A DNA stretch of 64,000 bases from Candidatus Hecatella orcuttiae (GTDB lineage Archaea; Thermoproteota; Bathyarchaeia; Hecatellales; Hecatellaceae), in contig MTLY02000003.1 in assembly GCA_002011035.2 (NCBI GenBank), positions 352,001 to 416,000 on the forward strand, read 5' to 3'. Positions 20,848 through 62,450 of the stretch are shown here, in pieces. Within the stretch, counting starts at the first letter, position 1; each line of letters opens with the position of its first letter. The notes beneath the pieces are model-generated. The model searched no databases. It was not told the origin of the DNA and saw only the letters and a program-made list of their open reading frames with translations. A program made the position numbers and the translations under genes.

Positions 20848-23211
20848 TTACCGGGCCTCCTTAGGTTTCGCCAGCCTCTCCAGCAGGGTGGGGTCGGGGG
20901 TCTCTCTTTCCCGCCAGCCCTCGGCTTTCAGGATCTCCATGACCTCGTCTCTGAGGGTTATGGGGATGTCCGTCTCCTTCCGGACTAGCAGATGGAGGTC
21001 GTCGGGCATCACCCCGTAATACCGCTTGTGCAAGTCCACGTAGTGGGCCAGCTTTATCGCCCGCCCCTTGGCTGTGTCGTTCGCCCTCATGCAAAGCTTC
21101 ACCAGCATCACCAACGCTTCCTCCTTGGTTTCAGCCGTGAAGAACAAGTGCTCGGGAACAGGGCCCACGTAGACCTTCTCCCCCGTGCGGGCGTCGTAGA
21201 CATACCAGTTGCTTTCCACTTCCTTCCTACCCAAGAGCATGCGCCTGTACTTGGAGCCATGAGGGCCTACGACCACGGGAATCCCCAGCCTCCAGAAGCC
21301 GCTGGCGATGGAGGCCGCCTTCTGGGACATGGCCCCCCAGGCGATGCCCGCGGCGCCCACCCGGTTGTGGATGTAGTCGGCTATCTCCTCGTAGTTGCCC
21401 CTCAGGTTCCGTCTGGCGAAGATGCTGGCTATCTTGATGGCCGCTCCAGCTATGTGGGAATTAGCCACGCAGGAGCCCACGTTGACCAAGCCTCCAGCGT
21501 CGAACACCCCCGGGTAGGCTTCGTAGAGGCTTTGACCGTCCTCGTTCTTGTACATACCGATGGACATGGCGGCGCAGCCGGAGGCGACCACGATGAACCG
21601 GCGTTTCAGAAACTCCTCAGCCATCTCAGCCACCTCCCGCCCTCCACCCGGGTAGTTGGCGCAGCCCACCAAGGCTATGACGCCGGGTATCTCCCCTAAA
21701 ACCAGAGGCCCTCCGACCTTCCGAATTTCCACATCTTGAATGGCGCCTCTTCCAACCCGAACCTTGTAGGCTTCTTCTCTGAGTTTCTCCTCCGAAGCTT
21801 TCACGATGCCGCTGTGGATGGGTATCTCCTGGGGGCAGGCGTCTTCGCAGCGGGCGCAGCCAATGCAGGCGGCGCAAAGGTCAGCCAGCCCGGTGAGAAC
21901 CCCGGAAGCCGCTGCCTTCACAGCCTCAGGGATGGGCAGGTCGTTGGGGCACGCCCGCCGGCATTCCTCGCATTCTGTGCATTTTTTAGCCAACTCCACC
22001 AGTTCATCCTGCCCGGGAAGGGCTCCGAACTTTCTCCTTTTTGGGGCTACCTCTATGGCTGTTCTCACGGCCACCTCTCCCACCTTAGCGGGGTCGAGGA
22101 TTAAGGCGCCCGGGGTCTTCCCTTCCACGAGGTCTTTCACGATTTCGTCGACAGGGTCGCCGGTTCTGTTGGGCAGGCCCGCGCACTGCTTTTCCGTGCT
22201 GGCGATGAAGGGGACCTTAGCCTTCTCCGCCTCGGAGAGGAGGTCGGTGCGGATGCACTGCTCGTCGACCACCGCCACGTCGGGGATGCCGCTTCGGATG
22301 AAGCGAAGCTGCCATGAGATGGGGCCGATGATTTTAGCTTTGGAATTGTACCGAGTGAGGTCGTGGGCGGTGCAGCATATTCCCGCTACTTCCACAGAGC
22401 CTTGGAGGCTGTTCTCAGAGAGATAGTCCATGATGTAGGCGGCGGGGGGCACGTTGTGGCCGACGACGAGGATGACGGGCTTAGAAGTGTCGACGCTTCC
22501 AAAACCTATATTTGCCAAGGGAGCCTCAGGGTCAGCCTTAGGGTAGGGGTAGGCGGAAACCTGAGCTATGTCAGCCACCTCCATAGCCACTTGGTCGACC
22601 ATCCCTGCGTGGAAGACCTTGGACTCGAAGTCCAGCGCGTCGCCTTCTTGACCTGTGTGGGTGGCGGAGAGCAAGTGGGTTATCTGGGATTCAACATAGT
22701 CCAAAGCTTCATCCAAATCCCCTAAGGTTTTAGGCTTGATCCCGCAGACCAGCCGGAGAATGGGCGCCTCCACTTCCACCTCTCCGGTTCCCACTTGGAT
22801 GGGATGGTCTCTCCCGTAGATTTTTGAAAGATGCTCCACCAAATGTCGGGCGTGGCTTGCATGGGTGGCCGCTCCCATGCAGCAGGCCAGCAGGACGATT
22901 CTAGACTGCTGAGCCGCCAGGTTCAGCCCGCAGGCGCCTTTCTTTCCCCGGGTTAGGTCGCATTTTCCCATGGTGCAAAGGCAGCAGAGGTCGCAGTAGG
23001 GCAGGTAGAAGGGCCTGTAGCGGCTCAGAAGCTTAAGGTCCCAATCTCGAAGGTCGACGGCGGAGGGAAAAGGGGTGGGGCCTTGAGGTTCCTCCCAAGG
23101 CTCTGTTATGGTTTTGCCTAAGACCAGTTCCAGGTCTCTGAAGACTCCTAGACCTGTCTTCAGCTCTTTAACCTTTAAGTGCAAGCTTTTCTTCATATTT
23201 TCCTTCACCAT
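20848..23211 (-). CDS. cdhA: CO dehydrogenase/acetyl-CoA synthase alpha subunit
   Basis: GPTPFP, CDLCCLCTMGKCDL, GICCT, two ferredoxin CxxCxxCxxxC motifs, GSCVAN, SQKA; alternative start ATG 23196. Confidence 0.97.
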   Translation of the reverse strand: MVKENMKKSLHLKVKELKTGLGVFRDLELVLGKTITEPWEEPQGPTPFPSAVDLRDWDLKLLSRYRPFYLPYCDLCCLCTMGKCDLTRGKKGACGLNLAAQQSRIVLLACCMGAATHASHARHLVEHLSKIYGRDHPIQVGTGEVEVEAPILRLVCGIKPKTLGDLDEALDYVESQITHLLSATHTGQEGDALDFESKVFHAGMVDQVAMEVADIAQVSAYPYPKADPEAPLANIGFGSVDTSKPVILVVGHNVPPAAYIMDYLSENSLQGSVEVAGICCTAHDLTRYNSKAKIIGPISWQLRFIRSGIPDVAVVDEQCIRTDLLSEAEKAKVPFIASTEKQCAGLPNRTGDPVDEIVKDLVEGKTPGALILDPAKVGEVAVRTAIEVAPKRRKFGALPGQDELVELAKKCTECEECRRACPNDLPIPEAVKAAASGVLTGLADLCAACIGCARCEDACPQEIPIHSGIVKASEEKLREEAYKVRVGRGAIQDVEIRKVGGPLVLGEIPGVIALVGCANYPGGGREVAEMAEEFLKRRFIVVASGCAAMSIGMYKNEDGQSLYEAYPGVFDAGGLVNVGSCVANSHIAGAAIKIASIFARRNLRGNYEEIADYIHNRVGAAGIAWGAMSQKAASIASGFWRLGIPVVVGPHGSKYRRMLLGRKEVESNWYVYDARTGEKVYVGPVPEHLFFTAETKEEALVMLVKLCMRANDTAKGRAIKLAHYVDLHKRYYGVMPDDLHLLVRKETDIPITLRDEVMEILKAEGWRERETPDPTLLERLAKPKEAR

Positions 23212-45775: not shown

Positions 45776-45895
45776 GGGAAAGCTTCCCCCGGCATTCCGG
45801 CGGGGTTTCTGGTGTTCTTTTGACTCATACGGACGTGGGCCTAAAACTTTATGTATTTTTTAAAAAATATAAAGAGCCTGAAGGTGCGTCGGGTA

Positions 45896-47857
45896 ATGCC
45901 TCCCTCCAAAACGGGAATAGACGTTCTGCTGAAAGAAGAGAGAATTTTTCACCCACCAAAAGACTTGGTGGAGCAGACCCATGTCAAAAAGTGGATGGAC
46001 GCTCACGGCATAAAGACCTACGAGGAACTGCTGGAAAAGGCCAAAGACCTAGAGTGGTTTTGGGGTGAAATCTCAAAGGAGCTGGTAGGTTGGTCTAAGC
46101 CCTACACCAAGGTTTTGGAGTGGAACCCCCCCTGGGTTAAGTGGTTCTTGGGCGCAGAGTACAACATCGTCTGCGATGCTTTAGACAGGCATGTGAAGAG
46201 TTGGAGAAAGAACAAAGTCGCCTACATCTGGGAGGGCGAGCCTGGAGACAGGGAAAAGCTGACCTACGCTGAACTGCATGGGAAAGTCTGCCAGGCTGCT
46301 AACGCCCTGAAAAGCTTGGGGGTGAAGAAAGGCGACAGGGTGGGAATATATCTGCCCATGATCCCCGAGCTTCCCATAGCCATGCTGGCATGCGCGAAGA
46401 TAGGAGCTTTGCACAGCGTTGTTTTCTCCGGTTTCAGCGCCCACGCCTTGAGAGACAGGGTTAACGACTCGGAGGCGAAGGTTGTCATCACCTGCGACGG
46501 CTTCTACAGGAGGGGGAAGACCGTTCCCTTGAAGAAGCAGACGGATGAGGCTCTTCAACAGGCGCCCAGCGTGGAGCATGTCATCGTCTACAAGCGGACA
46601 GGCGGCGAGGTTTCTTGGAATGAGAAAAGGGACCTCTGGTGGCATGAGGTGGTAGACGGCCAGAAGAAAACATGTGAGACGGAGATCTTGGACGCCAACG
46701 ACTTCCTCTACATCCTCTATACTTCCGGAACCACGGGAAAGCCCAAGGGGGTGGTTCATGCCCACGGAGGCTACGCCGTGGGGACAGCCTTCACCCTCAA
46801 ATGGGTTTTCGACTTGAAGGATGAGGATGTTTGGTGGTGTGCGGCGGACATCGGCTGGGTCACAGGGCACAGCTACATAGTCTACGCGCCTCTGATTTTG
46901 GGGGTTACCTCAGTGCTTTACGAGGGCGCGCCGGACTACCCGAAGCCTGACAGGTGGTGGTCCATCGTGGAGCGGTATGGGGTGACTGTGCTCTACACTT
47001 CGCCCACCAGCATCAGGCTTTTCATGCGCTATGGGGAAGAGTGGCCTGCGAAACATGACCTGAGCTCCCTGAGGTTGCTGGGCACGGTGGGGGAGCCCAT
47101 CAACCCCGAGGCTTGGATGTGGTACTACAAGCACATCGGAGGGGAACGCTGCCCCATCATGGACACCTGGTGGCAGACGGAGACGGGTAGCTTCTGCATC
47201 TCACCTCTCCCCATCACCCCCCTGAAGCCCGGCTCGGCTACAAGGCCTCTGCCCGGGTGGACGGCTGATGTCTACGATGAGGAGGGAAAACCCTTGGTGA
47301 ACCAAGGAGGCAACCTCGTCCTCCTCACCCCTTGGCCCGCTATGTTCCGCGGCCTCTACAAGGACCCTGAAAGATACAGGGAAGTCTACTGGAGCAAGTA
47401 CCCCAACGTCTACCTGGCGGGGGATGTAGCCCGCATCGACAGGGACGGCTACTTCTGGATCCAAGGGCGAGCCGACGACGTCCTCAATGTGGCAGGCCAC
47501 CGGATAGGCAACTCCGAGGTGGAGTCAGCCCTCGTCAGCCACGAGGCTGTGGCTGAGGCCGCTGTGATCGGGAAACCCCACGAGGTGAAGGGAGAAGCCA
47601 TCGTCGCCTACGTGGTCTTGAAGAGAGGCGTGGAGCCCACGGAGAAGCTGCGGGAAGAGCTGAGGGGGCATGTGGCCCGGGAGATAGGGAAGCTGGCGAG
47701 GCCTGAGGAAGTGTGGTTCGTCTCCGACCTCCCCAAAACCCGAAGCGGCAAAATCATGCGGCGGGTGGTGAAGGCGGTGGTCTTGGGGAAGCCGGCGGGG
47801 GACATATCCACCCTCAGCAACCCCGAGGCTGTGGAGGAGATAGGCAAAGCCCGGTGA
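45896..47857 (+). CDS. acs: AMP-forming acetyl-CoA synthetase
   Basis: [38 protein letters not shown]. Confidence 0.96.
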
Positions 47858-47919: not shown

Positions 47920-48012
47920 GCGGCCGTAGTCTAGCTTGGTTAGGACATCAGCCTGCCAACCTTGGGAGGCAGAACGCTGAGGACCCGGGTTCAAATCCCG
48001 GCGGCCGCACCA
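47920..48012 (+). tRNA. tRNA-Gly(GCC) with 16-nt intron at canonical 37/38 (47959-47974), encoded CCA
   Basis: Acceptor GCGGCCG/CGGCCGC; TCAGC-CTGCCA[intron]C-GCTGA; T-arm CCGGG-TTCAAAT-CCCGG; CTGC/GCAG central helix of relaxed BHB. Confidence 0.93.
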
Positions 48013-48395: not shown

Positions 48396-49625
48396 TTAAA
48401 TTCCAGCAGCTATTTTGGCTTCTGTCCATGCTTCAAAGTATTTGTCCCATATCGGTGGATCTGGGTGTTCCCAGTTGTAGAAGATTCCTTTCTCCAACAG
48501 GTCTTCAGGTTTATCCAATCCCAACAGTTTTATTATTTCGGGGTCCGCCAGTTCCCATCCTTTTACATTCGTGGATGCGTAATAGTAAACGTTGGTCAGA
48601 AATTGGCCTGTTCGAGGATCTAAGAAGGCATTTATGTAGTCATGGGCAAGCTCGTAGGTTCCTCTTTCTGGAGAGCCTTCTCCCACATTCATAGCGTAAG
48701 GCCAGATGAACAGAGCCTCTCCCGTCCTGTAATTGGCTCCAGGTGTAAGCCCCAGATAGACCACGTCCAAACCTTCAGCCAACCCTGCAGCGTACAATTC
48801 CGTCCACATGGTTGCAATGGCTACTTCGCCTTCTTTAAGACTTGCAAAAAGCTCATACTGGTCATCGTAGATAATTTTTGCTTGCTTAAACGCTTTCATC
48901 ACCGCATCTTTCCAAGCTTCTATCTGGTCATCAGTAGGATTTTTGAACTCTTCCACTGTAAACAATGCGTCGAACATAGGCCCAGCAATTTCAGAAGGAG
49001 CATCGTACATGGCCGTTCCTACCTCTGCATATTTTGGATCCCACAAGCACGACCAACTGTCAGGCTCTGGTAATCCCGCATCCCGGATTAGGTCTCTTCT
49101 GTAAATAATCGAAGTCATTCCCATATCCGTCACCAGCATATAGAGTTGGCCGTTGTGTCTGCCGTATTTTTCAACTAGTGCTTTAAAGAAAGGATGTACA
49201 TCTTGGTAGTTAGGTATCAAATCTAAGTCTATCGGCTCTAGCGCATCAAACTCCAAATATCTCTTGAAATGAGTCCAATAGCCGCCGAAGTTGGAGGCGT
49301 CAAACCTATCTCCAATCGCTATCCTTGCCAACGCTGAATCTTCATCAGGAAAAATGACGTGCGATACCTTTACATCCGGATGTTTTTCCCTAAACGCAAG
49401 CCACAGTTCTTCAACATCATACCCAGCCCACGTCCAAACTATTATCTCATTAGCTTTCGGTGGTGGTACTGGAGTTGGCGTAGGAGTTGGTGCGGGTGTC
49501 GGGGTTGGGGCTGGAGCGGGCCTTGTGGCCTGCCAAGCGGCGTAGCCGCCCACACCGGCCACCACCGCCGCAACCACGGCGGCGATGCCGTATTTCAGGG
49601 CCTTTCTTCGAGATTCATTACTCAT
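48396..49625 (-). CDS. PotD/PotF-like ABC substrate-binding protein with Tat-like signal
   Basis: SRRKALK twin-Arg + hydrophobic segment, PT linker, VWTWAGY, DSWSCLWDPKY, AHDYINAFLDP. Confidence 0.85.
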   Translation of the reverse strand: MSNESRRKALKYGIAAVVAAVVAGVGGYAAWQATRPAPAPTPTPAPTPTPTPVPPPKANEIIVWTWAGYDVEELWLAFREKHPDVKVSHVIFPDEDSALARIAIGDRFDASNFGGYWTHFKRYLEFDALEPIDLDLIPNYQDVHPFFKALVEKYGRHNGQLYMLVTDMGMTSIIYRRDLIRDAGLPEPDSWSCLWDPKYAEVGTAMYDAPSEIAGPMFDALFTVEEFKNPTDDQIEAWKDAVMKAFKQAKIIYDDQYELFASLKEGEVAIATMWTELYAAGLAEGLDVVYLGLTPGANYRTGEALFIWPYAMNVGEGSPERGTYELAHDYINAFLDPRTGQFLTNVYYYASTNVKGWELADPEIIKLLGLDKPEDLLEKGIFYNWEHPDPPIWDKYFEAWTEAKIAAGI

Positions 49626-49902
49626 TTTTATATATCTCTCCTAAAAGCGGCTGTTTATTATTCCGGTTCAGATTATATATAAATATTACGGTTTACTGAA
49701 CGATGTTGCTAAGATTTTTTGTTGGGCCGGATTTGCAAGCGTAATTTGCGGACTGCAGGGGTCAAGCTGATTGCTTCATGATTTAGGATCCTATTTATAA
49801 GTCTCTCTGTCACTGTAGAAACCCGGAAAACTCTCGACTAGGTTTTTCTGATTTTTCTAACTAAAGTCAACTTCTCAAATGCCTAGCTTTGAGTTGGCGT
49901 CT

Positions 49903-50679
49903 TCAGGCTGATATTCTTTCGATCATCCTCATCAAAAACGCAAGTCCGATGGCAAAAGACAATATGATGGAGGACATAGCCGTTAAGATTGGCACGAATT
50001 TTGGCAGTTTCATCAGCAAAGAGTAAATATACACAGGCGCTGTTTGCTCTGTCCCGGCAAGGAAAACCGCGAGGGCAACATCTTCCCACGAGATGATAAA
50101 GGCTAAAATGGCGGCCACCGCCACTCCTGGCATTATAAGAGGCAACGTTACTTTCCGAAAAGTGGTGAATTTACCCGCGCCCAAATCCATGGCAGCCTCT
50201 TCAAGACTTATGTCAAGAGCTATGAATCTGGAGGTTAAGACCAAGGTAGTGTAGGGTATGGTGATTAGAATATGACCTATAATGATGACTATTAACGATG
50301 GGTTTACCCCCATTTTTAATAAAAAGGACATCAAACTGAAACCCATGATGATGTAAGGTGTCACCATGGGCATCAGCAAGAGCCCTGTGAAAATTTTTTT
50401 CCCAGCGAAGTTTGTGCGCGCTAGTGCATACCCTCCGCAGATTCCGAAGATTACAGCGGCTCCCGTGGTAACGGAAGCGACCATGAGGGAGTATTTAACG
50501 GCATTTATAGCGGCTGGAAATCGGAGAAGTTCGATGTACCATTTGAGGGTGGGGAAGTTTCTTAAGGGCAGAGTAGAAGTTTCGTTGAGGGATAGCAGTA
50601 ACAGTATGGCGATGGGGAAAAATGTGAGTATCAACAAGAATCCAAGTACGACAATGAACATTATACTCGATTTCGTCAT
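49903..50679 (-). CDS. ABC permease, PotC-like
   Basis: TLKWY, LEEAAMDLGA, VTLPLIMPG. Confidence 0.9.
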   Translation of the reverse strand: MTKSSIMFIVVLGFLLILTFFPIAILLLLSLNETSTLPLRNFPTLKWYIELLRFPAAINAVKYSLMVASVTTGAAVIFGICGGYALARTNFAGKKIFTGLLLMPMVTPYIIMGFSLMSFLLKMGVNPSLIVIIIGHILITIPYTTLVLTSRFIALDISLEEAAMDLGAGKFTTFRKVTLPLIMPGVAVAAILAFIISWEDVALAVFLAGTEQTAPVYIYSLLMKLPKFVPILTAMSSIILSFAIGLAFLMRMIERISA

Positions 50680-50680
50680 T

Positions 50681-51604
50681 TTAGAGACTCTCCATCAGCT
50701 TCCTGAAGCCGATTCTCCGATAAAGTAGGAAGACCGCTATGAAAGTTATAATCAGCAGATAAACAGTGAAAGCCGCGGCTACATCCCACCTAAACCCCTT
50801 GAGGAAGAAATCGTAGATCAGGTTTCCAAACAATATTCCGGTTCTGCCTCCCACTACTGCTGGAGCTATGAATTCTCCCATCGTCGGAATAAACACGAAC
50901 AAAACTGCTACGAAAACTCCGGGTAGACTCAGGGGAAAAGTAACTTTTAGGAATGTTGTAATGGGCGAAGCGCCCAGATCGTCTGAAGCCTCCAGCAAAA
51001 CTCTGTCTATTTTTTCCAGCGACACGAATATCGGCAGAATCAACCAGGGAAACCATGTGGCAGTTAAAACCAGCCAAACAGAAAATAGGTTGTACCCCAA
51101 TAGTTTGATGGGCTCGCTTATTAAGCCGAAATATAGGAGCAATGAATTTATTACTCCTGTGCTGCCTAACATCAACCGCCAAGCCAGCAATATCAGCATA
51201 TAGGTGGCAAAATAAGGCGCTTGAAACAGGAATAGAACAGTATACTTATTTTTTAAAACTCTAAAGGCTATAAAATAGGCTACAACATACGCGAACAAAA
51301 CGGATGAAGCTGTAACGGTAACCGCTATAAAAAACGTTCGAAGTAGAAGTCTGGCATAATCCGTTCGGATGAATAGTTTTGCATAATTGCTGAGTACGGG
51401 AAAATTAACAACAGTTCTTGTCACAGGACTTAATTCAGCGAAGCTCAAGATTAACACTGAAAAAACAGGAATGAAAAATACGATGATAATCCATAAGTAA
51501 GTGGGTAGAACTAGCAAAAGATCTTTTAACCTTGAGTTGGTCTGTGCCGTGAAAAAATTCCGGAAAGATTTCTTTATACTCATATTACCACTTCCGTTCG
51601 ACAA
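50681..51604 (-). CDS. ABC permease, PotB-like
   Basis: GVINSLL, LLEASDDLGA, VTFPLSLPG, FIPTMGEF. Confidence 0.9.
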   Translation of the reverse strand: MSNGSGNMSIKKSFRNFFTAQTNSRLKDLLLVLPTYLWIIIVFFIPVFSVLILSFAELSPVTRTVVNFPVLSNYAKLFIRTDYARLLLRTFFIAVTVTASSVLFAYVVAYFIAFRVLKNKYTVLFLFQAPYFATYMLILLAWRLMLGSTGVINSLLLYFGLISEPIKLLGYNLFSVWLVLTATWFPWLILPIFVSLEKIDRVLLEASDDLGASPITTFLKVTFPLSLPGVFVAVLFVFIPTMGEFIAPAVVGGRTGILFGNLIYDFFLKGFRWDVAAAFTVYLLIITFIAVFLLYRRIGFRKLMESL

Positions 51605-51624
51605 TGGCCTCCAATGGATTTAGC

Positions 51625-52680
51625 CTAGGTTATCAACTTGGAGTCTTTCTTATTCCAACCGATTTTTACCTTCTCCCCAATTCCAAAAATGCCTTCCATG
51701 CCGGGACTGGGCGCTACAACTGAAATGGAGGAACCATTTTCCAGCAAAACTCTGTAGGTGACGACTCGGCCCTGATAATAGGCCTCTTTAACTTCTCCAG
51801 CGAATATATTATCCAACGCGTTTAACTTTCTTCCGATGAAAATTTTCTCCGGCTTGATGGAGACTAAGACTGATCCTTTGGATAGCTGACACTCAGGTGT
51901 GACGGTGATTTTCCCCAGATTATCGACTTCCACTGCCCCATTCTCATACCTCCCTTTGAAAACGTTAGTTCCCCCAATAAAATTAGCCACAAACTCAGAG
52001 TTAGGCTGTTCATAAATCTCGATAGGCGAGCCGATCTGCATGATCTTTCCGGCTTTCATTACGGCTATTTTGTCGGACATCGTTAGAGCTTCTCCTTGGT
52101 CGTGAGTGACGTAGATGAAGGTAGTGCCGACTTCACGTTTAATTCTCTTCAGCTCGACAATCATTTCCTCCCTAAGTTTTAGATCTAATGGTCCCAAAGG
52201 TTCGTCTAGAAGCAATACAGTTGGTTTATTAACCAAAGCCCTTACAATGGCAATTCTTTGTTTTTCGCCGCCGCTCAATTGGCTTATTTTCCTCTTTTCA
52301 TAGCCTGGAAGTCTAACGAGGTCTAACATTTCTTTAACTCTTGCTTTGATTTCGTTTTCCGGTATTTTTTTTATTTTTAATCCGAATGCTATATTTTCAT
52401 AAACGTTGAGGTGAGGGAATAGAGCTAAGCTCTGAAAGACTAGGTTTGTAGGCCTCTTAAAGGGGGGTACATCCGCCATAGGTTCTCCTTCGATGAGTAT
52501 CTCCCCTTCGGTTGGCTTCTCAAAGCCGCTGATCATTCTGAGTATAGTAGTCTTTCCACATCCGGAGGGCCCTAAGAGAGAAAAAAATTGTCCCTTTTCC
52601 ACTTGAAAGGAAACATCGCTAACTGCAACAACATCTCCGAATTTCTTAGTTACGTTTTTCAGTTCAACATCGATCTTCAT
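51625..52680 (-). CDS. ABC ATPase, PotA-like
   Basis: GPSGCGKTT, LSGGEKQR, LLDEP, YVTHDQ. Confidence 0.93.
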   Translation of the reverse strand: MKIDVELKNVTKKFGDVVAVSDVSFQVEKGQFFSLLGPSGCGKTTILRMISGFEKPTEGEILIEGEPMADVPPFKRPTNLVFQSLALFPHLNVYENIAFGLKIKKIPENEIKARVKEMLDLVRLPGYEKRKISQLSGGEKQRIAIVRALVNKPTVLLLDEPLGPLDLKLREEMIVELKRIKREVGTTFIYVTHDQGEALTMSDKIAVMKAGKIMQIGSPIEIYEQPNSEFVANFIGGTNVFKGRYENGAVEVDNLGKITVTPECQLSKGSVLVSIKPEKIFIGRKLNALDNIFAGEVKEAYYQGRVVTYRVLLENGSSISVVAPSPGMEGIFGIGEKVKIGWNKKDSKLIT

Positions 52681-52796: not shown

Positions 52797-54185
52797 GTGG
52801 AGGATACGCCTCATATGATTCTTTCGTTAGATGAAATTTATAGGAGGACTGAAGATGGTCCGATAGTGGAGGAGGAATATTTCGACAAAAAGCTTTTGCC
52901 CAGAAAACTTCGAGAACTAGCAAAGGAATATGATATTAATTACAATCCGGAAGAGCCCGTTCCAACTGACGACAAGTTAGCTGACGACGTTTTTGAGGCG
53001 GGGAAAAAGTTACTGTGTGATGTAGGTATTCTGTGTGTGGACACAGGTAGGTTGATAAAGTTCTCTGAGGATGAAATTAAAGAAGGACTTAAAGCAGCTC
53101 CAAATAAAATAACCATCGGGCAAGGTGAGAGATCCCGAGAAATAACTGAGAGAAAAGCAGAAGACAAAAAGATACCTTGGCTTGTTCCCGGCCCCAGCGG
53201 AATGCCTATATCAGAGGACTTGGCTAGCGTGATAGCTCAATCCATCGTTCAAGAACCGTTAGCAGAAGGTTACTGGACTCCAACTATTACGAAATATGGA
53301 GGGATGGAGGTAAAACTGCATTCTCCGTTGGAAGTTCTTGCATCAAGATATGAAATTATATCGGCCAAGGAGGGAGTCAGAAAGGCTGGTAAAGAAGGGC
53401 TTCCCATTGTTGGAGGAATGACAGGGTTAAGTCCAGCTGGATTCATCGCTTCTATATTTAATGGAGGATTTACGAGAGGGGACTGTCTTCTCGTAAGCTG
53501 CATGAACGAGTTGAAAATCAACTACGATATCATGACGAAAGTATGGTTCGTTTCAAAATGTAGCGACGTAAACCTGATGTATGATGCCACTCCTCTATTA
53601 GGCGGAATCGCAGGTGGACCGGAAGGCACTGCTTTAGTCTCAGTTGCTCAGGAAATAGAATGCCTGTTGCTGGGAGCAGACCTAAGCGGTGGTAACTCAA
53701 TCGATATTTGGTCTGGAACAAGCTCAGGCAGGAAGACCATGTGGGCCTCTAATTTATTCTTGAACGCCATGAACCGGAACGTCAACGCAATAGAGTATTG
53801 CTACCACTTTGCCGCAGCAGGACCTTGCACAGAAATGCTTCTCTATGAGGGGGCAGCGAAAACCATAAGTGTGGTGGCTGCAGGATACGATTTTCACTGT
53901 GGTCCTTTGGCCTTGAGAGCTGGGAAGGAAGATTACATTTCTCCGTTAGAATTTAGGCTCAGCTGCGAAGTCGCCCATGCCATGGCTGGAATTAAAAGGG
54001 AAAATGCCAATTACTTGATAAAAGAATTATTAGCAAAGTTCGAAGATAAAATTCAAAAACCGCCTCTTGGTAAAAGCTTTACCGAGTGTATGGACTTAAC
54101 TACGCTTCAGCCTTCCAAAGAATGGCAGGCTATCTACGAGAAAGTGAAAAAAGAATTAGAAGACTTGGGAATAAAATTCAAATGA
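52797..54185 (+). CDS. mtmB: MtmB-family corrinoid methyltransferase lacking pyrrolysine
   Basis: End-to-end similarity to MtmB (GPSGMPISE, SPLEVLA, NELKI, AGPCTEM, GKSFTEC, KELEDLG); Pyl site is GTT(Val). Confidence 0.88.
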   Translation: MEDTPHMILSLDEIYRRTEDGPIVEEEYFDKKLLPRKLRELAKEYDINYNPEEPVPTDDKLADDVFEAGKKLLCDVGILCVDTGRLIKFSEDEIKEGLKAAPNKITIGQGERSREITERKAEDKKIPWLVPGPSGMPISEDLASVIAQSIVQEPLAEGYWTPTITKYGGMEVKLHSPLEVLASRYEIISAKEGVRKAGKEGLPIVGGMTGLSPAGFIASIFNGGFTRGDCLLVSCMNELKINYDIMTKVWFVSKCSDVNLMYDATPLLGGIAGGPEGTALVSVAQEIECLLLGADLSGGNSIDIWSGTSSGRKTMWASNLFLNAMNRNVNAIEYCYHFAAAGPCTEMLLYEGAAKTISVVAAGYDFHCGPLALRAGKEDYISPLEFRLSCEVAHAMAGIKRENANYLIKELLAKFEDKIQKPPLGKSFTECMDLTTLQPSKEWQAIYEKVKKELEDLGIKFK

Positions 54186-54246: not shown

Positions 54247-55590
54247 TTACGAACCCCGTATATTTTTGAGAGTGTCATAAGTAGCCTGTATGGTCTTTTG
54301 TATATCTTCCGGCTCATGCATCGCCGAAACCATCCACTCCTCAAACCATGCTGAACCGCTCGGTATTATTCCTCTATTCAACATGTTGATCCAGTATTTA
54401 TTCCACATCGCCGCGTCGCAAGCTGAAGCTTCTCTGTAGTTTTTTGGAACCTTGTCCAATCCGAAGAAGATGCATCCCATCATGGTGCATCTGCCCACAG
54501 CGGCTTTTATACCTGTATCTGCTATGGCGTCTACAACTCCCTTGTACAACTCCTCGCCAAGGTTGTTAATTTTCGCATAGGCATTAGAGGTTAATACCTT
54601 TTTCAGGCAGGCTAAGCCTGCAGCTGTTGAAAGAGGATTGGCGTTATAGGTTCCGTAGTGCACAACACCGCCCAAAGGAGTTATCATCTCCATGTATTCT
54701 CTCTTTCCGCCGAACGCGGCCAGAGGTGATCCGCCGCCGATGGCTTTGGCGAAAGTTACCAAGTCGGGTTCAATACCGTAGAGTTGGCTTCCGCCCCCCT
54801 CAGCTAGATTGCATCCTGTCTTAACTTCATCCAATATTAACAAAATGCCATATTCATCGCAAAGCCTTCTAACTTCCCTGAAATAGTCTTTTTCCGGGGT
54901 TATGATCCCGCTGTTGGTAAGCACAGGCTCGGTTACTATCGCCGCAACTTCGTTTTCATGCTTTTTCAACACTCTTTCCAAGCCGTCGGCATCGTTAAAG
55001 TGAACCACCAAGGTCTGTTCGACGTTCTCCTTCGGTGTGCCCAGCGAGTCGGGAGTGGATGCAGGGTTATGTATCGATCCTAACAGGATGCGTCTTCTGG
55101 GTTTATCGCTTATCAGCAGCACATCGTTTGCTCCATGATAGGAGCCCTCCATCTTAACCACCTTAGTCCTCCCTGTGATTCCTCTGGCAAGCCTAACGGC
55201 ATAGAAAGTTGCTTCCATTCCCGTGTTCGCAAAGCGGAGCATCTCAACATACGGGTACCTTCTCATTATCTCTCTCGCCAATTCATCGGCCCCTTCCCCT
55301 TGAAATCCCAGCAACGTCCCCCGCTCCGCCTGCTCTTTTATCGCTTCAACTATGATGGGGTTAGCGTGACCAGCAGTCATGGCTCCGTAGGCCAGACAAT
55401 GGTCTACATACTCTCTTCCGTCTAAGTCCCATAGCTTGCCGCCCTTTCCCCTTGCCATGTAAAGCGGATAGGGCTTAAAGAATTGGATAGCTGTATTTAC
55501 TCCTCCAGGAATAATCTGAGATAGTTTTTCGAAAAACGCCTTTGAAGCTGGGGTGTTTTTAATATATATATCCTCTTCAGCCAATGCCAC
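54247..55590 (-). CDS. Class III PLP aminotransferase, HemL-like
   Basis: IPGGV, GSYHG, LILDEVKTG, TFAKAIGGG, HYGTYNANP. Confidence 0.88.
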   Translation of the reverse strand: MALAEEDIYIKNTPASKAFFEKLSQIIPGGVNTAIQFFKPYPLYMARGKGGKLWDLDGREYVDHCLAYGAMTAGHANPIIVEAIKEQAERGTLLGFQGEGADELAREIMRRYPYVEMLRFANTGMEATFYAVRLARGITGRTKVVKMEGSYHGANDVLLISDKPRRRILLGSIHNPASTPDSLGTPKENVEQTLVVHFNDADGLERVLKKHENEVAAIVTEPVLTNSGIITPEKDYFREVRRLCDEYGILLILDEVKTGCNLAEGGGSQLYGIEPDLVTFAKAIGGGSPLAAFGGKREYMEMITPLGGVVHYGTYNANPLSTAAGLACLKKVLTSNAYAKINNLGEELYKGVVDAIADTGIKAAVGRCTMMGCIFFGLDKVPKNYREASACDAAMWNKYWINMLNRGIIPSGSAWFEEWMVSAMHEPEDIQKTIQATYDTLKNIRGS

Positions 55591-56033: not shown

Positions 56034-57440
56034 TCAAACTTTCGAGAGTTTCTCGAGGCGTTCTACACAATTAATTTTGATGCCGAGCAGTTCAGCGATC
56101 CTAACTTTAGCTTCGAGTCCTTTCGCTGCACCCGGTAAACCAGTTATAACACCGATGTCAAGTTTTTCCCTAAGCTTTCTCATAGTAAACTCATCACAAA
56201 GCTCTATTGAGGAGACACCTAGCTTTTTAGCGACGTAATCCTTCGCTTCAGGTAGTCTCATTTTCTTTTGCAACTGCATCCTACCAATCAGGTCGCCTGA
56301 TGTTCTGATGCTGCCTATGCCACCGGCTACCAGATGCCCAATGGGCATTCCAATGCAGTCTCCGACACCCACCTAAATGCCATCGACGCCGGCTATCTCG
56401 ATCATAGCTTTGTTCGCTCTAGTTACTGTATCCAACGGTGGTGTTTCTAACATGGGCACGCCGCCTACACCCATTCCCATGTTGGGGTGAACAGGGATAG
56501 TCGCTTCTCTCACGCATGCCTTGGTAAACGTAACCGCCCTGGAGAGATTCCATGGGAAAGTGAGGTGGGGTTTTGTATTTATCACAGGTCCAAATATGTC
56601 GACACCCGCTTTTTCCGCTACTTTAAGTTGTTGATGCGGCCACATTCCAGCCAAACGTTCTCCTGCATATTTCAATTCCGTGTGAAATCCGTGTACAGCC
56701 TCGGTAGCCATACCCATCTGGACAGCTAGGTCGGGGTACACCTTTTTCAATGACTCTGTAGCCGTAAGGGCTGCATAAAAGTCAGGATCTCCCGCCGCTC
56801 CTACTGTATCGATATTTATTCCATCCACGCCTACTCTTCTGAGATGTTTAGCTACATATATTATGGCATCATGACATTCTCGAGCAGCGCCCTCCATAGA
56901 TTTCCTCGCTTCGTCGTTCTTTCCTTCTCTGATCAGAGAGATCGGTTCAGGCCATTGACCATCAGGCTTATAGAAATAGCCTAAGTTGGGCATAGCCATG
57001 AATTCTAGAGGACTGATCGACGTGTGCAGAGTATTGTGGATAACATTCGCCAAATAGCTCACTATTACCTTTGCAGGCTTAAAGCTTCCATCCGATTCAG
57101 GAAATTGTAGTATATCAAGTCCAAGCACCCTTTCAGACAGCGCTCCTTGAGCAATGGAACGTTCAATCGGCATACCTAATCCACTAGTGCCAGAGTCAAT
57201 CCAGAAAGTCGAGCCTCCTGCATCAGCGGACAGGACGACCTCGCATCCATGTTTTACAGCCACAACCTTATTGGCGTCGATGATAATTTCATATAATGTT
57301 TCCAGATCTTCGCCGGTTAATTCGGGTATTTTCGCCCTTTCTGCAGCGTCTTTTGAACCCAATTCTAGGTCGTCTTTGATCTGTTTACCCGTCATGGTGA
57401 TCAGTCTACCATCGCCTCTTCTCGTCAAATGTTCTGGCAT
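56034..57440 (-). CDS. mtbB: Dimethylamine:corrinoid methyltransferase MtbB with in-frame amber (pyrrolysine) codon 356; 468 aa
   Basis: Track ORFs 56373-57440 and 56034-56372 are in one frame, joined by TAG at 56373-56375: [18 protein letters not shown], matching MtbB GVDGI-O-IGVGD. Confidence 0.92.
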
Positions 57441-57476
57441 ACGTTCTCACCTCCTTTCTATTTTTATTTGTGAGCA

Positions 57477-58127
57477 TCATTTTTTTAGAAGGCAAGTGCG
57501 GGATGCAAGGAGTCTTTTAGCTTTAACTACAGCATCCATTGCGTCGGCACCCCATTCGTCGGCGCCGATCTCTTTTGCATGCAATTCGGTTGTTGCTCCT
57601 CCGCCCACCATTACTTTAACGTCATCACGAACTCCTGCTTCCTTCAGAGCATCAATTACCTCTCTTTGGGCGATGGCGGTTGTGGTCATGAGAGCGGAAC
57701 AACCTACAAATGCGGGTTTGTGCTTTTTAACTGCCTCTACAAATTTTTCAGCAGCAACATCTCGACCTAGATCGATGACATCGAATCCTTGAGCTTCCAG
57801 CATCGTGGCCACTATACTCTTACCGATGTCATGAATGTCGCCTTCAACTGTACCGATTATGAACTTGGCTTTTTCACCTCTTTTCTTCCTAGGCACTTTT
57901 TTAAGCAAAACGTCCGCAACCTTCTTGATGGCCTCGGCAGAAAGAACTACTTGTGGAAGAAATATCTCTGACCTACCGTATAGATCTCCTACCTGCCTGA
58001 TAGCCTCAGAGGCATGGTCCAACGCCCTTAAAGGTTCAATACCTGCTTTCAGACAAGCCTCAGCGATTTTAACAGCGCCCTCAACATCTTGATTTAAGAT
58101 CGCATTATAGAGCTTATCTAGTTCCAA
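57477..58127 (-). CDS. mtbC: Methyltransferase corrinoid protein
   Basis: EIFLPQV, GTVEGDIHDIGK (DxHxxG), SALMTTT, MVGGG; immediately upstream of mtbB. Confidence 0.9.
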   Translation of the reverse strand: MELDKLYNAILNQDVEGAVKIAEACLKAGIEPLRALDHASEAIRQVGDLYGRSEIFLPQVVLSAEAIKKVADVLLKKVPRKKRGEKAKFIIGTVEGDIHDIGKSIVATMLEAQGFDVIDLGRDVAAEKFVEAVKKHKPAFVGCSALMTTTAIAQREVIDALKEAGVRDDVKVMVGGGATTELHAKEIGADEWGADAMDAVVKAKRLLASRTCLLKK

Positions 58128-58520: not shown

Positions 58521-58943
58521 TTATGCGCCCAGTTTTTTAACTGTTAATGCGCCTGTGGGGCACCATTCAACACATGCCGGAGAACCTTGACATAGGTCGC
58601 ATATCAGCGGTTTTCGACGTGGTTCATTCATCCTTATCGCCGAGTATGGACATTCTTCAACGCACAATTTGCAGCCTGTGCACTTTTCCTCATCGAGTAT
58701 AACAGCCCCGGTTTTCTCATCTTTTTGGAGTGCTTTCACAGGGCAGACTTGAATACAGGTGGCTTCTTCGCATTGAATGCACGCAACAGGATACACGAGA
58801 GTAGGCGGATAGCTTGTTGCAATGTGGATTCTGGATACTTTCGGATTAAACACTGAGGCTTTTTTGAATGAGCAGATAAGCTCGCATGTTTTACAGTCGG
58901 TGCATTTTTGGCCATCAATCAACAAGCGGATGGAGATAAGCAT
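58521..58943 (-). CDS. 4Fe-4S multicluster electron-transfer subunit (AOR-associated, DmsB/CooF-like)
   Basis: SD GGAGGTG before ATG 58943; CTDCKTCELIC, CIQC..CIQVCP, CTGCKLCVEECP, CDLC..CVEWCP. Confidence 0.9.
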   Translation of the reverse strand: MLISIRLLIDGQKCTDCKTCELICSFKKASVFNPKVSRIHIATSYPPTLVYPVACIQCEEATCIQVCPVKALQKDEKTGAVILDEEKCTGCKLCVEECPYSAIRMNEPRRKPLICDLCQGSPACVEWCPTGALTVKKLGA

Positions 58944-58951
58944 CACCTCCT

Positions 58952-60793
58952 TCACGTTACTAGGTCGGTAAGTTCCAATTCGATAAGCTTCTCCCTCGTA
59001 GGTTCGCCTTCTCGGTTCCACCCTCTCAGTTCATAGTACTCATCGAGCAGCTTAGTCATGTCGTCGGAGGTAACTTTGTGCCCCTTGGCCGGCCCTGAAG
59101 GCAGAGGTTCCCCGGTGAACCGCTTGGGTAAACAGTCGTCTTTCCGCGTAAAGCCTTCGCGAATGTTAAACATGCGGATCAAATTCCATACACGCTCACC
59201 TAGCTTCATAAATTCATCTGCACCTCCCTTCCACCCGGTGGCCAGCGACAACAACTCCGCATAGTGCTCAGGTTGAAGGCCTGTTCGGCTGAAATCGCAG
59301 CAGGGAAGCGTGCAAACAGCCGTAAGCCAATCCTGCTCCCACTTGACGATTTCAGCCTTACCCTTGAGCGAAAGCCGCTCCACGGTGCCGGAGGGTCCGG
59401 GGATTCCCTCAACCTCGTACGCGATCGGCCATCCCCGCTCATGGCAGCCGCCCCTGTCAGCTGTGGCTAGGGCCAGCGCCATTCCCGGGGCTCCCCTGGG
59501 AGGCCACGCCGGCGTCTCCAGCCCCTTGATGCTGACAGCTAAATCTAACGCTCGGCCGCCTATCTTTTCCGAAGCTTGCTTTACGCCTTCAGCCATCAGG
59601 TCGCCTATCCCTTCTCGGCGGGCTATTCTTTCAACAAGCTCAAGCACAGCTTTGGAGTTCCCAAACTTCGGGTTAACCCCTTGGAAATCCTCCGAGGTCA
59701 GAATTCCCTTTTCAAAAAGCTCCATGAAGAAACCTATGACGCCGCCGGTGGATATGGTATCTAACCCCAGTTCATCGCACAGGTAATTTGCGTAAGCCAC
59801 AGCGTCCAGATCCGTGATGCCGCAGTTGGCTCCCAGCAGGCCGGTGGTTTCATATTCCACACCGTCCACCACGGTACCCGCGTAGGGGCCTTTCTTTATC
59901 ATCAGAAGGTGGCCGCATCGAATGGGGCAGGAGAAGCAGGCAACCTTTCTAAAGCGGACGGCCTTGGACTGAATTCTGCCTGAAAGCTTTTCCGCCCCCC
60001 GGATGCTTCCGTCTTGAAAGTTTCTTGTCGGGAAGAAACCTTCAGAGTTGGCGAAATCCACAGACCCCGCGGTTCCGTATTCCGTCCACGTCGCTCGCAC
60101 AGCTTCGCTTTCAACCAGAGCCTTGTGCAGCTTTCTCGCAGCTTTCACAAATTCCTTTGGATTGGCCACCTCCACAGGCTTTGTTCCTCGAACGGCCACA
60201 GCCTTCAGATTCTTTGAGCCCATCACGGCTCCTAGGCCTCCCCTCCCCGCCTGCCGGTAGTCACAGCCGACGCACGCAAACCTGACAAGTCTCTCTCCCG
60301 CCGGTCCGATGCACGCTGTTTTCACCTCGTTGTCGCCGAGCTCTTTTTTGACGGCAAGGGCGGTCTGGGTTATGGTAAGACCCTGAAGGTGGCTGGCGTT
60401 TTTGATTTCCACATGCTCATTGTCGATCCAGATGTAGCTGAGTTTTTCAGCCTTCCCCGTGAGCACCAAGGCATCGTAGCCGGCGTATTTTAGTTCCTGG
60501 CTGAAATAGCCCCCAACATAGCTGTCGCAAAAGGTTCTCGTGAGGGGGGACTTGGAGACCACGATGCCCTTCTGAGCTGGAGCCAGCGTACCTGTCAAAG
60601 GCCCTGTGCTGAATATGAATATGTTTTCAGGGCCAAGGGGATCAGCCTTGGGGGGTAGCTCCTTATACAATATCGCTGCTGCTTGCCCTTTTCCACCGAC
60701 CAGTCTCCTAGCAACAGATAAATCCAATGGCTGCCGGAGTATTCGCCCTGTGGTTAAGTCTATGCAAAGAATATTCCCCTGATAACTATCCAT
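58952..60793 (-). CDS. aor: Aldehyde:ferredoxin oxidoreductase (W/Mo AOR family)
   Basis: SKSPLT, IGPAGE, AGRGGLGAVMGSKNLKA, CFSCPIRC, EYET, GLDTIS, YYELRGW. Confidence 0.93.
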   Translation of the reverse strand: MDSYQGNILCIDLTTGRILRQPLDLSVARRLVGGKGQAAAILYKELPPKADPLGPENIFIFSTGPLTGTLAPAQKGIVVSKSPLTRTFCDSYVGGYFSQELKYAGYDALVLTGKAEKLSYIWIDNEHVEIKNASHLQGLTITQTALAVKKELGDNEVKTACIGPAGERLVRFACVGCDYRQAGRGGLGAVMGSKNLKAVAVRGTKPVEVANPKEFVKAARKLHKALVESEAVRATWTEYGTAGSVDFANSEGFFPTRNFQDGSIRGAEKLSGRIQSKAVRFRKVACFSCPIRCGHLLMIKKGPYAGTVVDGVEYETTGLLGANCGITDLDAVAYANYLCDELGLDTISTGGVIGFFMELFEKGILTSEDFQGVNPKFGNSKAVLELVERIARREGIGDLMAEGVKQASEKIGGRALDLAVSIKGLETPAWPPRGAPGMALALATADRGGCHERGWPIAYEVEGIPGPSGTVERLSLKGKAEIVKWEQDWLTAVCTLPCCDFSRTGLQPEHYAELLSLATGWKGGADEFMKLGERVWNLIRMFNIREGFTRKDDCLPKRFTGEPLPSGPAKGHKVTSDDMTKLLDEYYELRGWNREGEPTREKLIELELTDLVT

Positions 60794-61274: not shown

Positions 61275-62450
61275 TTATATTTTTGACAACTCTTTTTCTC
61301 TCAGGATTAGTACGGCTCCAGTGAACTGGTTGTCTTGATTTTCGATGGGGGTAGTGTAAATGAACGTTCTCAGAGGGCTTCCTCCTTTCTTCAGGAACTC
61401 AAATTCATGAACTTCATCGAACCTATGTTTCCGCCTGTTTTTTATGCTATGGAGAATTTTTCCCCATCTCTGACTGCAGAACTCCTCAAGATTCTTGCCC
61501 ACCATCTCCTTTGATGTGTATCCGAGCATCTCAGCAGTCCTTGGGCTGACATATGTAGTGTTGAACTCTGCGTCTACAAGCCATAAGCCTGTCTCTCCTT
61601 TCATGGCTGACGTCCTCTTTGGGGGAAGTTTTGTTTTTAACAGGGTATCCACAAGTTTAAAGGGGTCCGCTGAGCTCCACATTTCCTCGAAGAATCTTTG
61701 GTATAGCCTTGTCCAACCTTTGCTGTTCAGCCATATATCTCTACAGCAAGAGTTCGATGGCCATCTTTCCATGTCTATTGCTATTCCGACAATGGTCCAT
61801 TTATCATCAATAATCATCGTGTGAAAGGGGATTCTGGAAATTTGTCTTAACTCTGCAAACTTATTGCAGATTTCAACCTCGCGGATGATTGTCTCGTCAA
61901 CCTCCGTAAGTATCCTCACCGGCATCCTGTGAGAGCATTTTCTTAATATGTCAACGAGACCATGATACTCCGCCAGATAAAGACCTGCCCCTGGCACCAT
62001 GTAGTCTATTTTGTTTTCCGCCGATTTACATAATGCGATCTTTTTACTATAGACTTGTTTCATTCCAGTCAAAATTTGTATGCCTTCTCTTTCTTCTCTC
62101 TCTTCTTCTTTCTCCTCACTTACTGCTTTCAGAGCGTCGACGAGCCTAGCTTTGTTAGATGCTATTCTGTTCACTCTTTCTCTTTCAGCCGCTAATAACC
62201 AATCTACAAGCATCTCAGGTTTAACGGCTTTAAATTTTTTAGGCCGTTCCAATAAAGACTGGATAAGTTCCCGTCCTTCAAGCTTCTTAAGTATGCGGTA
62301 GACTTCAGGCCGAGGGATTCCTGCCCGACGGGCTAACTGGTTTGCGGTTAGGTCTGAGCTATATTTTATTAGTGTAACCAGTACTTTAATGTCGTTTCCA
62401 GATAAGCCGAACTCGCTTAGGTTCTGTACAATTTCTTGTTCTTTACTCAA
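61275..62450 (-). CDS. TrmB-family regulator with C-terminal PAS domain
   Basis: FGLS, GIPRPEVYRILKKLE, RPKKFKAV; PAS: TYVSPRTAEMLGYTSKEMVGK...KKGGS. Confidence 0.85.
   Translation of the reverse strand: MSKEQEIVQNLSEFGLSGNDIKVLVTLIKYSSDLTANQLARRAGIPRPEVYRILKKLEGRELIQSLLERPKKFKAVKPEMLVDWLLAAERERVNRIASNKARLVDALKAVSEEKEEEREEREGIQILTGMKQVYSKKIALCKSAENKIDYMVPGAGLYLAEYHGLVDILRKCSHRMPVRILTEVDETIIREVEICNKFAELRQISRIPFHTMIIDDKWTIVGIAIDMERWPSNSCCRDIWLNSKGWTRLYQRFFEEMWSSADPFKLVDTLLKTKLPPKRTSAMKGETGLWLVDAEFNTTYVSPRTAEMLGYTSKEMVGKNLEEFCSQRWGKILHSIKNRRKHRFDEVHEFEFLKKGGSPLRTFIYTTPIENQDNQFTGAVLILREKELSKI

Follow-up and report, generated by a model that had tools for sequence, protein, structure and literature searches.

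A probable pyrrolysine-dependent MtbB-family methyltransferase gene with an in-frame TAG codon in Candidatus Hecatella orcuttiae

A 64,000-nucleotide stretch of the Candidatus Hecatella orcuttiae genome (positions 352001-416000 of contig C3, hereafter the window) carries an mtbB gene with an in-frame TAG, and the question raised by this locus is whether that codon ends the protein or is read as pyrrolysine (Pyl, O). The mtbB reading frame lies on the minus strand of the window (56034-57440) and comprises 468 residues with one internal TAG. It is very probably one functional Pyl-dependent enzyme of the MtbB family, a methylamine:corrinoid methyltransferase (MT1), with its UAG decoded by the pyl system of the same genome.

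Integrity, family and conservation of the mtbB gene

With translation table 11, the listing of open reading frames (ORFs) breaks the gene into two pieces, one of 355 residues from an ATG (56373-57440, minus strand) and one of 112 residues (56034-56372, minus strand), which forms the C-terminal helical part of the protein. The TAG is codon 356 (56373-56375, minus strand), and the terminal stop is a TGA (56034-56036, minus strand). A Shine-Dalgarno-like AGGAGGTGA can be read directly 6 nucleotides before the ATG (57447-57455, minus strand), and the plus strand of 56034-57440 contains many stops. Read directly, the codons across the TAG are GGC-ATT-TAG-GTG-GGT-GTC-GGA-GAC and the surrounding peptide is GVDGI-O-VGVGD, the motif seen in the MtbB family here being DG[ILV]-O-VG[VTA]GD. 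The coordinates, the two ORF lengths, the codon string and the lack of any other lesion reported in the initial annotation were all reproduced on re-reading, with the gene on the minus strand. That annotation had also given GVDGI-O-IGVGD as the context in Methanosarcina MtbB, with Pyl at about residue 356; the TAG here is likewise codon 356, and the residues after it are VGVGD, not IGVGD.

Contigs of three public runs (X1 record 1, X6 record 3 and X7 record 8) span the TAG without a single differing letter, although some of these runs may themselves be the source of the assembly. Because the three sets of contigs are identical across the codon, the TAG is not an assembly error. Other public runs with part of the mtbB sequence were fragmentary and identical, with no variants, and no RNA dataset with the sequence was found among the public runs listed.

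One Pfam match, to PF09505 (592.7 bits, E 5.5e-178), runs in a single stretch from residue 4 to residue 463 across the TAG, and because it covers both sides, the joining of the two frames is not due to chance. The protein also matches TIGR02368, the NCBIfam equivalog for dimethylamine:corrinoid methyltransferase, at 495.8 bits against a cut-off of 369.1 (residues 3-462). An AlphaFold model built from a 30-sequence alignment shows a TIM-barrel core (predicted local distance difference test score 91.8, predicted template-modelling score 0.92) and places residue 356 in a short strand (354-357). No solved structure with a sequence match to the window protein was found, and a Foldseek search with the model returned generic TIM barrels only (template-modelling score at most 0.38). 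Exhaustive structural alignment gave the homocysteine domain of MetH as the top match (1q7m, Z 18.6, root-mean-square deviation 3.5, 253 aligned residues), with the Methanosarcina mazei methyltransferase 4ay7 at Z 17.8, the URO-D family at Z 16.0-16.4 and generic barrels at Z 13-14. The nearest folds to the model core (residues 64-400) are those of corrinoid-methyltransferase barrels (the MetH homocysteine domain and MtaA/URO-D), at just 9-14% identity. MtmB and MttB structures were absent from the top rows of Foldseek and VIA-align, which is still compatible with relatedness.

The TAG occupies the same column throughout the family. Among 23 relatives fetched from species genomes, 3 end before the site, and all 20 that reach it have the TAG there. 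Among 54 metagenome loci, 46 carry DG-x-TAG-VG-x-GD and three more (L102, L103 and L109) have the TAG at residue 356 within a variant motif, which gives 49 of 49 intact loci reaching the site; L091 and L096, broken by many stops, and three loci ending before the site were left out of this count. The TAG is found at the same column also in a second mtbB of this genome, on contig C1. The window protein shares 43-55% of its residues with relatives upstream of the TAG and 46-68% downstream. Compared with the paralogue in the genome, nucleotide identity after the TAG is 0.74, 0.79 and 0.41 at codon positions 1, 2 and 3, and the proportion of nonsynonymous differences (pN) is 0.23 downstream of the TAG and 0.30 upstream. 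Synonymous divergence (dS) is saturated against every available relative, and the dN/dS ratio, about 0.1 where computable, is only rough. The identity and codon-position patterns indicate that the 112 codons after the TAG are constrained, and that protein-level constraint on them is no weaker than on the codons before it; the relaxed selection downstream of the TAG that the initial annotation had named as a sign against Pyl was not what these comparisons showed. A search for closer orthologues gave a match, at 47%, in one of the four PylB-bearing genomes of the class, matches of at most 51% on genome contigs, and partial matches of at most 56% on metagenome contigs.

These observations bear on two alternatives. 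If the TAG were a real stop, the window copy would be decaying or truncated, its 355-residue product would be inactive or otherwise employed, and the copy on contig C1 would do the work. TAG is indeed a frequent true stop in this genome, and the window mtbB is fast-evolving and, alone among the Pyl-type genes, lies outside a methylamine island on contig C1 (described below). Yet the downstream codons are open and better conserved than the upstream ones, their third positions being saturated while the first two are kept; the TAG column is invariant in the family; the window copy keeps 77 of 86 near-invariant columns (columns at least 95% conserved among 36 representatives); and the AlphaFold model is confident through the C-terminus. 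We therefore consider decay highly improbable. The GTG codon directly after the TAG might instead serve as a start, with the 355- and 112-residue polypeptides assembling into a split enzyme without pyrrolysine. But this GTG corresponds to the valine that all relatives conserve in O-VGxGD, no ribosome-binding site could be accommodated within the conserved DG[ILV] codons, and the organism maintains a full Pyl cassette, which makes a split enzyme the most remote of prospects.

The initial annotation had expected gene callers to split mtbB, and this is borne out by the protein databases: all 120 relatives listed (P0002-P0121) are 341-383 residues long, i.e., cut at the TAG, and where a source gives a name it is "dimethylamine--corrinoid protein Co-methyltransferase". 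Public databases hold the MtbB family, as far as these 120 matches go, as proteins ending at the TAG. In mtbB genes of some other organisms (L022-L025 and L034), the terminal stop is also a TAG, with O at residues 458, 468 or 462.

Pyrrolysine machinery and UAG usage in the genome

The genome assembly (1.75 Mb in 3 contigs) is 97.1% complete, with an estimated contamination of 4.25%. The initial annotation had stated that the Pyl machinery is not in the window and had proposed a genome search for it, with a lack of pyl genes in a complete genome counting against Pyl; the genes are on another contig, C1, and the set is complete. There, tRNA-Pyl(CUA), pylS, pylB, pylC and pylD follow one another contiguously, and all four proteins score above curated cut-offs: PylS, of 280 residues and consisting of the catalytic domain only, at 279 bits (cut-off 178.15), PylB at 436.2 (348.2), PylC at 354.8 (248.3) and PylD at 217.1 (150.05). 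The tRNA gene (C1:349861-349931, found by ARAGORN) folds into a cloverleaf with a CUA anticodon, a 6-bp anticodon stem, a very small D loop and a 3-nucleotide variable loop; Rfam gives only a weak tRNA-Sec match at this locus (22.5 bits). PylSn (TIGR03912) had no match in the genome, fused or separate, and the synthetase therefore falls in the PylSn-less class, which does not in itself exclude function. PylS aligns end to end with solved catalytic domains of pyrrolysyl-tRNA synthetase (PylRS), best with 3dsq and 2zni (245.9 and 245.6 bits), followed by 8ifj (208), 7r6o (196), 6jp2/6ezd (188) and 2q7e-type structures (183). On our reading, 3dsq/2zni represent the PylSc of Desulfitobacterium, 6jp2/6ezd come from a methanogen whose enzyme has no PylSn, and 2q7e is the domain from Methanosarcina mazei, which would make a bacterial-type PylSc the closest solved relative.

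The pyl cassette lies within a methylamine island (approximately C1:334-356 kb) that also holds a second mtbC-mtbB pair, mttC-mttB and mtmC-mtmB, with one TAG per methyltransferase gene, as well as one non-Pyl MtmB paralogue. The GC content of the island is 0.520, as compared to 0.508 (standard deviation 0.038), and neither this nor its tetranucleotide signature gives any sign of recent foreign origin.

With machinery and window on different contigs, a binning artefact would mean that the C1 island and the C3 window come from different organisms and that the gene has no machinery. The estimated contamination speaks for this, as does the start of contig C3, where a partial rRNA operon is only 84-91% identical to that of contig C2. 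On the other side, the three contigs correlate in tetranucleotide signature (r 0.995-0.997) much as two halves of a single contig do (0.986-0.995), the value for the island is 0.956 where random pieces average 0.950, the 97% completeness is reached over three large contigs, and the mtbC-mtbB pair of the window has its paralogue in the C1 island. Mis-binning is unlikely because the three contigs share one tetranucleotide signature and the island is compositionally ordinary, and we consider the chance of a gene thus separated from its machinery to be very small.

We screened the genome for TAG junctions flanked by 200 or more codons on the upstream side and 60 or more on the downstream side. Of the 102 junctions screened, 4 were crossed by a Pfam domain, namely those of the two MtbB genes, MtmB and MttB; in the other screened ORFs with a Pfam match, among them those for ThiC, ATP synthase subunits, FtsY, OTCase and enolase, the match stops short of the TAG or starts beyond it. 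Looser criteria gave 361 candidates, and the screen is blind to short or Pfam-less Pyl proteins. With a small Pyl set of four genes, the genome offers a clean and nearly complete case of probable genetic-code expansion in a non-methanogenic archaeon.

Several observations weigh against this reading of the window gene. Read-through of UAG-356 is deduced from sequence comparison. Among ORFs of at least 150, 250 and 400 residues, those ending in TAG number 486 of 1694 (28.7%), 254 of 977 (26.0%) and 113 of 410 (27.6%), respectively. Nor do TAG-ended ORFs have a back-up stop closer by: the next TAA or TGA comes at a median of 29 codons (n=332), compared with 22 after TAA (n=454) and 21 after TGA (n=449). 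The genome has one copy of aRF1. A structure like the pyrrolysine insertion sequence (PYLIS) 3' of the TAG was not supported (z -0.57 and -1.30, with 54 and 20 of 200 shuffles folding equally well), and the sequence gives no pointer to how this UAG is selectively read. The MtbC-like corrinoid protein encoded next to mtbB reaches 209 bits against TIGR02370, 6 under the cut-off of 215.3. A bona fide Mer was not found in the genome (best 136 bits against 348.7), and the methyl-oxidation route is therefore incomplete as tested. Finally, the window copy departs from 9 of the 86 near-invariant columns, which makes its specificity for dimethylamine uncertain.

Sifarchaeia show a similar pattern of UAG usage, discussed under a competition model (PMC9499178 and PMC9723677). 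With UAG ending approximately 27% of long ORFs in this genome, and pylB too, the organism is a good case for how UAG is read in two ways. pylB ends in a TAG two codons before pylC and in frame with it (contig C1; L004, 8818-11142), and a corrinoid-protein gene (L152, C1:126058-126840) ends in a TAG directly in frame with a non-Pyl gene of the MttB family; UAG read-through would fuse PylB to PylC, and the corrinoid protein to its MttB-family partner.

The Pyl trait is rare in the class, which comprises at least 37 families and over 400 species with genomes of 1-2 Mb. Of 41 genomes examined for PylS, this one alone had a match above the cut-off, and none of the 40 relatives did. PylB was above the cut-off in 4 of 401 genomes sampled from the larger set, in four different families, with a fifth, partial match at a contig end. 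Given this low frequency, many genes annotated as MtmB or MttB in the class cannot be Pyl enzymes. The genome itself shows a large expansion of non-Pyl MtmB homologues: of 12 MtmB-family genes only one (C1:354100-355452) has the TAG, and the other 11 are 29-36% identical to it, with F, V, L, I, Q, G, W or P at the Pyl column. Annotated MtmB or MttB genes of the class without Pyl, including these 11, should not be taken as evidence of methylamine use.

A diverged copy and its gene neighbourhood

In a sparse tree, the two MtbB copies of this genome were exclusive sisters (support 95/94), a placement that was overturned by denser sampling from a search of 5.8 billion proteins. Among the matches listed, P0003, which represents a cluster of 7 sequences, is 64% identical to the window copy and P0004-P0009 are 56-59% identical, closer than the C1 copy at 55%. 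Denser sampling makes P0003 the partner of the window copy (support 100, stem 0.48); the C1 copy falls with P0011, P0012 and P0014, and its identity to P0012 is 82%. The nine near-invariant columns at which the window copy deviates (Y118G, Y147F, G148M, Y156F, D192A, E241Q, M375I, G377S and V385I) place it second of the 36 representatives; the C1 copy departs at 3 of the near-invariant columns. P0003 is altered at five of the six N-terminal positions altered in the window copy. At position 118, the window copy has G and P0003 has A; at 147 they have F and H, at 148 M and I, and at 156 both have F, while the other 11 aligned members carry Y, Y, G and Y, respectively. At position 192, the window copy has A and P0003 has S, against D in 10 of the other 11 and N in one (P0017). 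In the AlphaFold model, residues 118, 147/148 and 241 are in barrel strands, like residue 356, and the signature of this sub-family is consistent with a rebuilt substrate pocket.

The minus strand around mtbB reads, in order, an aldehyde:ferredoxin oxidoreductase (AOR), an Fe-S protein, MtbC, MtbB and a HemL-like class-III aminotransferase. The presumably cognate MtbC-like corrinoid protein (57477-58127, minus strand; both B12-binding domains above Pfam cut-offs, PF02310 at 96.9 bits and PF02607 at 55.9 bits) is encoded 36 nucleotides upstream of mtbB and is 58% identical to the product of the corrinoid gene beside the C1 mtbB. Further upstream on the same strand are a 4Fe-4S ferredoxin-like subunit (58521-59021; Fer4_11 and related families), the AOR (58952-60793; AFOR_N 251 bits, AFOR_C 482 bits) and a protein with TrmB-HTH and PAS domains (61275-62450; PF01978 60.9 bits, PF13426 43.7 bits), a candidate local regulator by its position. 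Directly downstream of mtbB is the aminotransferase (54247-55590, minus strand; PF00202 216.6 bits), a diverged paralogue of HemL that scores 431.8 bits against TIGR00713, below the cut-off of 527.3. The true HemL is encoded at C3:665888-667147 (612.8 bits against TIGR00713) and is 40.6% identical to it. Beyond the aminotransferase are an MtmB-family paralogue without a TAG (52797-54185, plus strand; PF05369 347.4 bits), which has V at the Pyl column and is 32% identical to the Pyl-type MtmB, and a PotABCD-type ABC importer (48396-52680, minus strand) consisting of a binding protein, two permeases and an ATPase (SBP_bac_8, BPD_transp_1 twice, and ABC_tran with TOBE_2). The NCBIfam PotA/B/C-like matches of this importer are all under their cut-offs except TIGR01187 (potA), which is exactly at the cut-off of 355.6.

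Fetched flanks of 78 MtbB loci, reduced to 37 lineages, were used to count how often such neighbours recur. AOR homologues are beside MtbB in 7 of the 37 lineages and class-III aminotransferases in 8, against about 0.7 and 0.6 expected from gene densities, which were those of this genome only; corrinoid proteins, the control, are beside it in 14. The recurrence next to Pyl-type mtbB genes extends over unrelated lineages (L022, L027, L040, L093, L094, L102, L103 and others). L022 has the same set of FeS protein, AOR, MtbB and corrinoid protein on one strand; L102 has ABC permeases and an aldehyde dehydrogenase, then MtbB, AOR and three omega-aminotransferases; and in L094, an AOR and an aminotransferase lie inside the pyl cluster, between pylC and mtbB. 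The omega-aminotransferase of L094 (5484-6892) is in two pieces in different frames, covering profile positions 8-246 and 275-454, owing to a frameshift or a sequencing error. In our genome, 3 of the 6 AOR genes are beside corrinoid-methyltransferase clusters. The MtmB-like, importer and regulator neighbours had no counterpart in the 78 loci save two PotA matches. The neighbourhood can be read as a pathway in which some methylated amine is demethylated and transaminated and the aldehyde is finally oxidised; we treat this as a lead and not as a result.

Divergence and neighbourhood together raise the possibility that the window gene encodes a Pyl enzyme, but not one for dimethylamine: a neofunctionalised window/P0003 sub-family would demethylate another methylated amine taken up through the adjacent ABC importer, with the primary amine so formed transaminated by the HemL-like enzyme and the aldehyde oxidised by AOR. 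In favour of it are the separation of the window copy and P0003 from the C1 copy, the shared replacement of Y118, Y147, G148, Y156 and D192, the barrel-strand setting that residues 118, 147/148 and 241 share with Pyl356 in the model, the gene set running from importer and non-Pyl MtmB through aminotransferase, MtbB, MtbC and FeS protein to AOR, an aminotransferase that is not the housekeeping HemL, and the excess of AOR and aminotransferase neighbours, with the L094 and L102 arrangements. However, the AOR/aminotransferase link is found with canonical MtbB as well and is thus not specific to the sub-family, the expected values come from one genome, and three kinds of neighbour are nearly without counterpart in the 78 loci. 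On balance, we consider a substrate other than dimethylamine unlikely, if a tentative option. It is quite unlikely that the further claim holds in full, i.e., that the window gene and the 7-member P0003 cluster form a new Pyl-dependent sub-family with a rebuilt pocket and a non-dimethylamine substrate, catalysing the first step of an undescribed route. Such a pocket would have other residues in place of three tyrosines that do not vary elsewhere in the family, of a glycine and of a near-invariant aspartate, and the route would run from import through Pyl-dependent N-demethylation and transamination to ferredoxin-linked aldehyde oxidation. If true, many annotated "dimethylamine methyltransferases" of sediment bacteria and archaea would feed such a route. 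The pocket signature and the AOR/aminotransferase neighbourhood are a testable lead to new substrates of Pyl enzymes, and both would be new if confirmed. A full-text search found no paper joining MtbB, aldehyde ferredoxin oxidoreductase and pyrrolysine, other spellings being outside its scope.

Host, methyl-group fate and known systems

The window is archaeal, as it encodes L31e, S19e, Rpr2, Rpb4, Pus10, Nep1 and HMG-CoA reductase. The initial annotation had suggested a Bathyarchaeia-like archaeon; the archaeal part of this is confirmed by the window markers, whereas the assignment to Bathyarchaeia is consistent with our data but not proven by name. What we take to be the Bathyarchaeota primers MCG528F and MCG732R have 1 and 2 mismatches to the 16S gene, and their sites are separated by the expected distance, 221 bp. 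The protein clusters nearest to the MetRS were mostly bacterial and of no help for taxonomy. mcrA (TIGR03256) had no match in the 97.1%-complete genome; hence the host is a non-methanogenic archaeon, and the methyl group does not go to methane.

The reading of the window gene as a Pyl-dependent MtbB suggests the following sequence of events. UAG-356 would be translated by tRNA-Pyl(CUA), charged by the PylSn-less PylRS with pyrrolysine made by PylB, PylC and PylD. Because UAG remains a frequent stop, Pyl insertion has to compete with the single aRF1; conditional expression of the pyl cassette, the usual proposal for UAG competition, probably keeps it in check. If the enzyme works like the Pyl methyltransferases already characterised, a methylated amine, presumably dimethylamine or a related compound, would be bound by the Pyl side chain in the active site of the TIM barrel, and the methyl group would pass to Co(I) of the corrinoid protein encoded upstream. 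An MT2 or MtrH-type enzyme is expected to move it from there to a C1 carrier, after which it would enter carbon monoxide dehydrogenase/acetyl-CoA synthase (CODH/ACS) and acetyl-CoA, or be oxidised. The genome has two MtrH homologues, six URO-D-type MT2 candidates, a RamA-like activase and 14 corrinoid-protein paralogues. CdhB and CdhA, archaeal CODH/ACS subunits and the likely methyl-group sink, are encoded in the window (20299-23211, minus strand; PF02552 115.7 bits, PF03063 206.8 bits), with CdhC elsewhere in the genome. An AMP-forming acetyl-CoA synthetase (45851-47857, plus strand) shares the window with the Pyl gene. Non-methanogenic methylotrophy feeding CODH/ACS is the most likely overall role. 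Such methylotrophy into CODH/ACS has been proposed for Bathyarchaeia (PMC10321748); in the accessible part of that paper, mtbB is reported in only two metagenome-assembled genomes (MAGs) and the word pyrrolysine does not occur.

MtbB of Methanosarcinaceae agrees with the window protein in family membership above the equivalog cut-off, length, TAG column, the O-VGVGD motif and an adjoining MtbC-type corrinoid protein, and the Methanohalophilus MtbB (locus L035) is 48-57% identical to it. The window system differs in that its host is without mcrA, its PylRS is without PylSn and UAG is a common stop, while the window copy alters 9 of the 86 near-invariant residues and has AOR, an aminotransferase and an ABC importer for neighbours. 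Archaea that encode Pyl without being methanogens, Bathyarchaeota among their number, have already been published (PMC9723677 and PMC9630628). The Asgard class Sifarchaeia (PMC9723677) is similarly non-methanogenic, with a Pyl-bearing MtbB, a high UAG stop share and a proposed route to acetate. However, it is a different class from the window host, MtbB alone is Pyl-bearing there as opposed to four genes here (two MtbB, MtmB and MttB), and its pylTS is apart from pylBCD (PMC9499178), whereas pylTSBCD is contiguous here. For the Bathyarchaeota MAGs JdFR-11 and B1-G15, PMC9630628 reports PylSc-only (delta-PylSn) and PylSn plus PylSc types, of which the PylSn-less type is the one found here. As far as their accessible parts go, the Bathyarchaeota MAG papers treat the synthetase and not a diverged MtbB copy or its neighbourhood.

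The RNA genes of this genome show some further peculiarities. The 16S gene on contig C2 (C2:464353-466521) extends over 2169 bases, whereas the model has 1478 positions; it contains an insertion of approximately 665 nucleotides, possibly an intron. A second, partial rRNA operon without the insertion begins at the start of contig C3 (C3:4-640 onward), its 16S and 23S being 84-91% and 76-84% identical to those of C2; it is either a divergent operon or a foreign contig end. ARAGORN reports no more than 24 tRNAs for the whole genome and gives odd anticodon calls for 4 of these, suggesting that many intron-bearing archaeal tRNA genes escape this program. In the window, the tRNA-Gly(GCC) gene (47920-48012, plus strand) is 93 nucleotides long.

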